From NCBI GenBank assembly GCA_964016885.1, contig OZ024741.1, positions 175,398,001 to 175,462,000 on the forward strand: a stretch of 64,000 nt of DNA. Direction: 5' to 3'. A program made the translations under genes and the position numbers. The notes under the pieces were generated by a model. The model was not told the DNA's origin and ran no database searches. It worked only from the letters and a program-made list of their open reading frames with translations. Position 1 is the first letter of the stretch. Every line of letters begins with the position of its first letter. Shown piece by piece: positions 31,063-31,680 of this stretch. The DNA comes from Eledone cirrhosa (taxonomy: Eukaryota).

Positions 31063-31680
31063 AAATAAAAGGCACAGTTAATAACTCATACTGATGTTAC
31101 CCTGTAATTAACAAGCTCAAAGTATAAATACTGAGCATTTCAATAATATATGTAGTAAATCGTGTGTCTAAAATTACGAAGGTTGAAATACCACATTTGT
31201 TTGAGAAATTTAATCAGAAGCAAACGGAATATACATAAAATAAAGTAAATTGTTAATTACAGAGTATCAGTATGAGTTATTAACTCTGCCTTTTATTTGT
31301 ATTTCGGCTCCCTACTAGGTGAGCTTATAAGTTGGGTGTATAAAGGCTATTGTTTCTAGCCAATCCACTCACACCACCTTTGACTTCTAGCACACGAGGT
31401 GAAATATTCATTCGTGTGGCTTTGGCTTTGGTGTTTGTTTCATTTAATCTATTCTCTCGCTGATGATGCCCACGGATTATCTGTTACAAACACAATTCTC
31501 AGGGCGAAACAGATTAAATCCCTAATCTGTCCGGGAGATGTAATAGTTATTGAGGCGGTCTGTATATATTTTATTTTATTTTATGTATATTCCGCTAGCT
31601 TCTGATTAAATTTCTCAAACAAATGTGGTATTTCAACCCTGGTAATTTTAGACACGCGATTTACTGTTTATTACTACATA
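31063..31680 (+). mobile_element. HHR element family F with two inverted 5' segments, bounded by (TA)n
   Basis: 31063-31112 is inverted at ~31254-31299; ~31146-31248 is inverted at ~31572-31682. Confidence 0.8.
31453..31538 (+). ncRNA. Full type I hammerhead ribozyme, family F
   Basis: tctctcg CTGATGA t gccc..gggc GAAA cagatta aatccc taatctg TC cgggaga: 7-bp stem I, long stem III, GUC site (C31531). Confidence 0.92.

Follow-up and report, generated by a model that had tools for sequence, protein, structure and literature searches.

A two-armed insertion of a non-coding hammerhead repeat in the genome of Eledone cirrhosa, probably a retrozyme copied by a Penelope-like enzyme

How did a complete hammerhead ribozyme motif come to lie in a short insertion that partly repeats itself in inverted orientation, and can the motif be expected to cut? 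The question is raised by positions 31063-31680 of a 64,000-nucleotide stretch of Eledone cirrhosa DNA (contig OZ024741.1 of assembly GCA_964016885.1), which is referred to here as the window. What is seen at this locus and among its relatives in the genome is a unit that is repeated head to tail, a complete hammerhead, a single inversion junction, two fixed outer ends and microsatellite flanks. In our judgement there is a good probability that the locus is a two-armed, back-to-back insertion, into (AT)n, of a non-coding hammerhead repeat of ~460 nt, a likely non-autonomous retrozyme that was copied by the enzyme of a Penelope-like element (PLE).

The sequence between 31453 and 31538 has the core and the helices of a type I hammerhead: the conserved CUGANGA, GAAA and NUH are all present, and according to a motif scan three helices of 7, 4 and 8 bp surround the core, of which helix I is open-ended (Table 1). 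The anatomy and the cleavage site given in the original prediction are correct by both the sequence and the scan. Applied to the window, a relaxed motif scan finds four hammerheads, one of which has a stem III of at least 6 bp, and finds none in the reversed window; Rfam adds a fifth, weak motif with a 3-bp stem III. The further claim that the motif at 31453-31538 is the only one with a long stem III thus holds among the five motifs of the window. Rfam does not match this hammerhead at the gathering level, nor at E-values of up to 5; its Hammerhead_1 model spans 45 positions, and both the loops and helix III of the model are short.

A long helix III is unusual for a type I hammerhead from an animal. 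In most animal motifs this helix is 1-2 bp long, which blocks cleavage of the monomer, and it is large in the motifs of fungal and protist PLEs, one of which, from Serpula lacrymans, was cleaved as a monomer with a kobs of 0.16 per min at 1 mM Mg2+ (PMC4209133). The present motif is like these fungal and protist hammerheads in its large helix III and in having no recognisable loop 1/loop 2 motif, but it differs from them in that it belongs to an animal non-coding repeat and is a predicted ribozyme. The extra base after position 9 is also reported for the minimal hammerheads of PLEs (PMC4209133).

Table 1. Positions of the features discussed. Coordinates are those of the window, except where a locus (L) is named.
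Feature	Position	Strand	Basis
Type I hammerhead, complete	31453-31538	+	sequence reading and motif scan, family alignment
Hammerhead core CUGAUGA	31460-31466	+	sequence and motif scan
Hammerhead extra U, after A9	31467	+	sequence and motif scan
Hammerhead stem II, 4 bp, 30-nt loop	31468-71/31502-05	+	sequence and motif scan
Hammerhead GAAA	31506-09	+	sequence and motif scan
Hammerhead stem III, 8 bp, 6-nt loop	31509-16/31523-30	+	sequence and motif scan
Hammerhead GUC, predicted cut after C31531	31529-31	+	sequence and motif scan
Hammerhead stem I, 7 bp including one G-U	31453-59/31532-38	+	sequence and motif scan
Left (AT)n microsatellite, presumed target site	30960-31062		tandem repeat 30960-31067, period 2
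Single inverted 5'-truncated arm, from unit ~314 via site A and the unit junction to end B at (AT)n	31059-31249	-	arm mapping, colinearity, profile match
One-sided tail between fixed ends A and B, ~85 nt; limits approximate (AT overlap)	31059-31145	-	two fixed ends in family
Forward arm, 431 nt of the ~460-nt unit, non-coding, ends at fixed end A	31250-31680	+	copies 94-95% identical
Right (AT)n microsatellite, presumed target site	31678-31789		tandem repeat, period 2, 56 copies
Other-family hammerhead-like motif	31971-32098	-	Rfam, weak; stem III 3 bp
Other-family hammerhead-like motif	41557-41599	-	motif scan; stem III 2-3 bp
Other-family hammerhead-like motif	46186-46230	+	motif scan; stem III 2-3 bp
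Other-family hammerhead-like motif	47084-47126	+	motif scan; stem III 2-3 bp
Subfamily with insert at site A	L029 1917-2109; L040 1672-1880; also L013, L035, L036, L079, L082, L105		
Two young coding families, taken to be Penelope-like, each with two fixed ends	L031 2130-6150; L043-L077		

An 8-bp helix III should allow cleavage without a partner, and it is plausible that the motif is self-cutting; for a short construct we would rather expect monomer cleavage than its failure. In the 111-nt construct 31440-31550, stems II and III are predicted to be highly probable, stem I reaches only ~0.44 and the full hammerhead fold has a probability of ~0.14. In the whole insertion, stem I is predicted to pair with a probability of no more than 0.04, and stem II of no more than 0.10. 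These values come from a thermodynamic model, which takes neither tertiary contacts nor folding during transcription into account. Because folding in context hides stems I and II, the statement that the motif would cut any plus-strand transcript crossing it is unsupported. A natural monomer of the same family (L007), modelled as a circle, folds with -122.3 kcal/mol (z -6.7), an energy as low as which was found in none of 60 shuffles of this one copy. Retrozyme RNAs are strongly self-paired, and the L007 monomer is likewise far more stable than its shuffles.

Both flanks of the insertion consist of (AT)n, as was seen when a target-site duplication was considered. Comparison of the insertion with itself yields two inverted matches, 31154-31249 to 31570-31665 (94%) and 31059-31114 to 31250-31302 (89%), and the original prediction had proposed two separate inverted segments and more than one template switch. 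However, the whole 187-nt stretch 31063-31249, including the 39 nt between the two matches, is colinear with other copies of the family (for example L006, L012, L017, L018, L020 and L027). Moreover, the inverted part maps to the unit as one piece, from unit position 314 to 53, over 199 positions and across the end-to-start junction, and is recovered as one profile match (31215-31059, E 1.6e-39). It is therefore one continuous arm, and there is only one inversion junction, at 31249/31250. The two arms add up to 627 unit positions, compared to the 459 nt of the unit, and overlap. With a similarity of 93.8% (rank 15 of 61) the sister arms are ~6% apart, which points to an old insertion, and this copy is probably inert.

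The unit itself measures ~460 nt and is found head to tail, with a length of 459 nt in L007 and 473 nt in L096. It runs on through its end-to-start junction in tandem, with a period of 459 nt in L007. A small, non-coding and AT-rich unit of 459-473 nt that bears a type I hammerhead is a retrozyme trait, and the insertion at 31063-31680 has no stop-free frame of at least 150 aa and no reverse transcriptase (RT) plus GIY-YIG ORF. Two hammerheads 473 nt apart are present in L096, the one locus with such a tandem among the seven scanned; the insertion studied here has a single one. Its hammerhead, which had been called the best single candidate, keeps this rank within the window but not beyond it, since other genomic copies have equally complete motifs, two of them in tandem in L096.

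To place this copy among its relatives, we surveyed the 3.0-Gb genome of the same species, which gave 2033 first-look candidates, 40 of which were scored (194 matches). Among these 40, the closest other copies are 94-95% identical across the forward arm. Exact patterns of the hammerhead halves have 263 (3' half) and 270 matches in the genome, and their controls none; the long stem III is thus a trait of the family and not peculiar to this copy. The exact pattern of end B plus AT, whose control likewise gave 0 matches, occurs 56 times. Many variant copies of the unit are also present in three sequencing runs of unknown kind. In the 30 best loci, the full 7/4/8 form with GUC is kept in 7 of the 34 aligned hammerhead regions, which is about what we would expect from neutral decay at 3% per site (0.97^50 ~0.22). 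Therefore, no selection is needed to explain why the hammerhead of this copy is intact. Over 29 rows of the alignment 91% of the stem cells are paired, with the structure taken from this copy, compared to 27-49% when it is slid, and in the alignment of 30 rows the indels lie mainly in loops II and III. One pair of stem I alternates between U-G (14 of 29 rows) and U-A (12 of 29). The alignment has no convincing compensatory change: two-sided changes are seen in four pairs, a result as high as which was obtained in 60 of 500 shuffles, and row L093 is an apparent chance match.

We then compared the ends of the insertions across loci. After nine duplicates had been dropped from the 72 loci examined, 63 distinct ones were left, 42 of which have adjacent back-to-back arms (43 pairs) and 21 of which have no adjacent pair. 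The outer ends lie at site A (unit ~428) or at site B (~53 of the next unit), which are ~85 nt apart, and are usually followed by (AT)n, sometimes by (AC)n. The 43 pairs fall into the end classes AB (24), AA (3), BB (0), Ax (6), Bx (7) and xx (3), the first 30 loci having been chosen by their likeness to the AB copy in the window. Thus, among the 27 pairs in which each outer end falls at A or B, 24 are AB, compared to ~13 of 27 that would be expected, by hand arithmetic, if the ends were independent. In the position-ordered subset L078-L106 the 14 pairs comprise six AB, one AA, no BB and seven others, and a later locus (L109) is AA. Two traits of the Penelope-type footprint, an adjacent inverted 5'-truncated copy and a tail at one end only, are therefore present.

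The inner starts of the arms, in contrast to these fixed outer ends, vary by copy and are scattered over the whole unit. The ribozyme cut site is crossed by 56 of the 86 arms, 20 of the arms are longer than one unit, and in 35 of the 43 pairs the two arms sum to more than one unit. Therefore, the template was uncut, multimeric or circular, or else two RNAs were used. The ribozyme cut site itself shows no excess of inner starts (4, compared to 3.9 expected); one arm of L108 begins 4 nt behind it. Among the 29 pairs with at least 60 nt of overlap, the sister arm is nearer than the median other copy in 27 and is the best or tied match in 12. Two variants of the unit were seen along the way. A subfamily has, at site A, an insert of ~200 nt from another repeat, which results in a longer composite unit. 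Four loci on three contigs (L032, L034, L037 and L038) share one internally rearranged form of the unit, have a period of 208 nt and end alike; this form perhaps spread inside a larger duplication.

Insertions of this kind have counterparts among the PLEs, whose traits include an adjacent inverted 5'-truncated copy, a tail of 30-40 bp at one end and a (TA)n bias (PMC8557442). This tail corresponds to the stretch that separates two internal start sites of the RT; AT-rich DNA is cut and extended on both strands, insertion in vitro does not need hammerhead cleavage, and a dimeric protein is predicted (PMC11167929). The family described here shares the inverted copy, the one-end tail, the (TA)n target and a hammerhead upstream of the ends with the insertions of endonuclease-bearing PLEs (PMC8557442; PAc in PMC11167929). 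It differs from them in that its unit has no RT/GIY-YIG ORF, in its longer tail of ~85 nt and in its full helix III, which is minimal or palindromic in those elements.

A second group of counterparts are the retrozymes of animals, which have been defined and for which PLEs were proposed as driver or source (PMC7229834; bioRxiv 10.64898/2026.07.22.740005). As in metazoan non-LTR retrozymes, the unit is a non-coding, AT-rich tandem repeat of a few hundred bases, it has a type I hammerhead and is strongly self-paired, and autonomous PLEs coexist with it (PMC7229834; bioRxiv 10.64898/2026.07.22.740005). However, at ~460 nt it lies at or just above the 150-450 bp described for them, its helix III has 8 bp, and the loci seen are mostly dispersed two-armed insertions of ~1-3 units. 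The main text of the retrozyme paper (PMC7229834) contains neither the word 'inverted' nor the word 'tail'; in the text of the preprint (bioRxiv 10.64898/2026.07.22.740005) 'tail' is likewise absent, and 'inverted' is found once, in the title of a reference. The literature covered, which includes few subscription papers and was judged by title or the start of the abstract, contains no description of this ~460-nt family.

How such insertions may arise can be outlined as follows. Tandem loci would be transcribed, and the hammerhead would excise units from the transcript and possibly religate them into circles. A Penelope RT-endonuclease would cut both strands of an (AT)n tract, after which reverse transcription would begin at site A from one DNA end and at site B, ~85 nt further, from the other. 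Each cDNA would reach back over a variable length of an RNA that is uncut, multimeric or circular, and the two cDNAs would finally be joined at their inner ends. Two starts, at A and B, followed by inner joining would leave one inversion and a one-sided tail.

Which enzyme might do this? The genome contains two coding families whose copies are 98-100% identical (with 40 scored out of 897 candidates for one family, and out of 1461 for the other). We take both to be Penelope-like, based on their motifs and their two-end layout. The frame of family 2 matches RT/HTH_animal clusters at 0.94-0.97, and Pfam gave an RT or GIY-YIG match in none of the four candidate PLE frames. Fixed ends before (AT)n are found at two sites in each family: 107 nt apart in family 1 (4 and 5 of 20 loci) and ~110 nt apart in family 2 (9 and 7 of 15 loci). 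In sense orientation, neither family matches the unit better than shuffled sequence does, and profiles of the unit family have no significant match in either (best E 0.87). Kinship of the unit with the pseudo-LTR (pLTR) of an autonomous family was thus not found in the two PLE families compared. When stretches of 8-12 nt are compared without gaps, the first end of family 1 ranks highest as a match to site A in all five copies scored (with some ties; four of nine were unscorable). For site B the match to family 1 depends on length, with ranks of 1-3 at 15-20 nt and ranks as low as 32 at 12 nt. Part of this likeness of short end motifs could be due to AT-rich priming, and the resemblance of family 1 to site A is a lead to the driver rather than an identification.

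In antisense orientation, the unit resembles the stretch behind the stop codon of family 2 (L064 1800-2100) with a score of 79, which none of 836 window tiles reaches; the core of this likeness scores 68 (0 of 1362 as high). It recurs in one of six further copies (L033), a profile of 15 arms gives no match at E-values of up to 10, and we left kinship as unproven. The idea that L031 represents the unit in full-length, autonomous form was rejected, since what lies there is a separate family, nested by insertion and having ends of its own. By eye, the terminal region of family 2 contains a hammerhead-like motif (L031 ~5820-5940), in which loop II is long and stem III palindromic. The window has coding remnants of its own. 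Its 190-aa frame at 42176-42748 (minus strand), which lies ~600 nt upstream of the hammerhead-like motif at 41557-41599, is presumably a PLE fragment, as judged by its motifs; Pfam gave no match for it. Broken frames of non-LTR retrotransposons are found at 13488-16607 (minus strand), 19332-21496 (plus strand) and 23002-23649 (plus strand), where an RT is matched at 19332-20384 and, weakly, an endonuclease at 16077-16607.

Could the unit simply be the pseudo-LTR of an autonomous Penelope-like element, and the locus a heavily 5'-truncated but ordinary insertion of it? All junction features are indeed those of PLEs, and PLE-like frames, recognised by motif and in one case backed by a cluster, lie in the flanks of 6 of 42 loci (L015, L017, L021, L031, L040 and L041). 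However, in all four of these loci that were read (L017, L021, L031 and L040) microsatellite or unrelated DNA parts the frame from the unit, the unit closes on itself head to tail, and the two coding families that were followed up have their own, different terminal regions. We consider this explanation improbable.

Even less credence is due to the view that a series of template switches made the inversion, or that it stems from twin priming of the L1 type on a single linear monomer RNA. The two inverted matches of the self-comparison would be in line with template switching, but they are parts of one colinear arm. Twin priming between B and A would fit a few copies, such as L009, and there is an excess of inner starts near site A (16 of 86, compared to 6.7 expected); this excess stems in part from the subfamily in which another repeat is inserted there. 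Moreover, arms that overlap and exceed one unit in sum, as in this copy and in most pairs, are impossible from a linear monomer. For the copy in the window both mechanisms are largely refuted. Finally, a DNA-level element, either MITE-like or an inverted repeat made by recombination, in which the hammerhead is a chance relic, would account for the terminal inverted structure and for the chance level of inner starts near the cut site. Yet the arm lengths and inner junctions vary by copy, whereas the two outer ends are fixed and differ from each other. This fits reverse transcription from fixed starts and not matching terminal repeats, and makes an origin at the DNA level very improbable.

We therefore return to a non-coding repeat copied by a Penelope-like enzyme. 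The family is likely a PLE-mobilised retrozyme family, of which the copy in the window is an ordinary and ageing member, with one inversion and not two; its value lies in the footprint of the family and in the long helix III, not in this locus. A more specific version can be put forward tentatively, and may well be wrong: a dimeric Penelope enzyme would use one small circular RNA, primed at two fixed sites, for both ends of the DNA break. This circle would be excised and closed by a monomer-competent hammerhead with its long helix III. The short motif at site A, common with the two young Penelope families, would then mark these or their relatives as the drivers. If this were true, the link between retrozymes and PLEs would become directly testable in vitro. 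In the literature covered, the return of animal retrozymes to DNA via PLEs is proposed rather than shown. A non-coding hammerhead family with a full PLE footprint, together with young coding families that have two ends, would offer both the substrate and the enzyme for the in vitro assay of PLEs that has been published.
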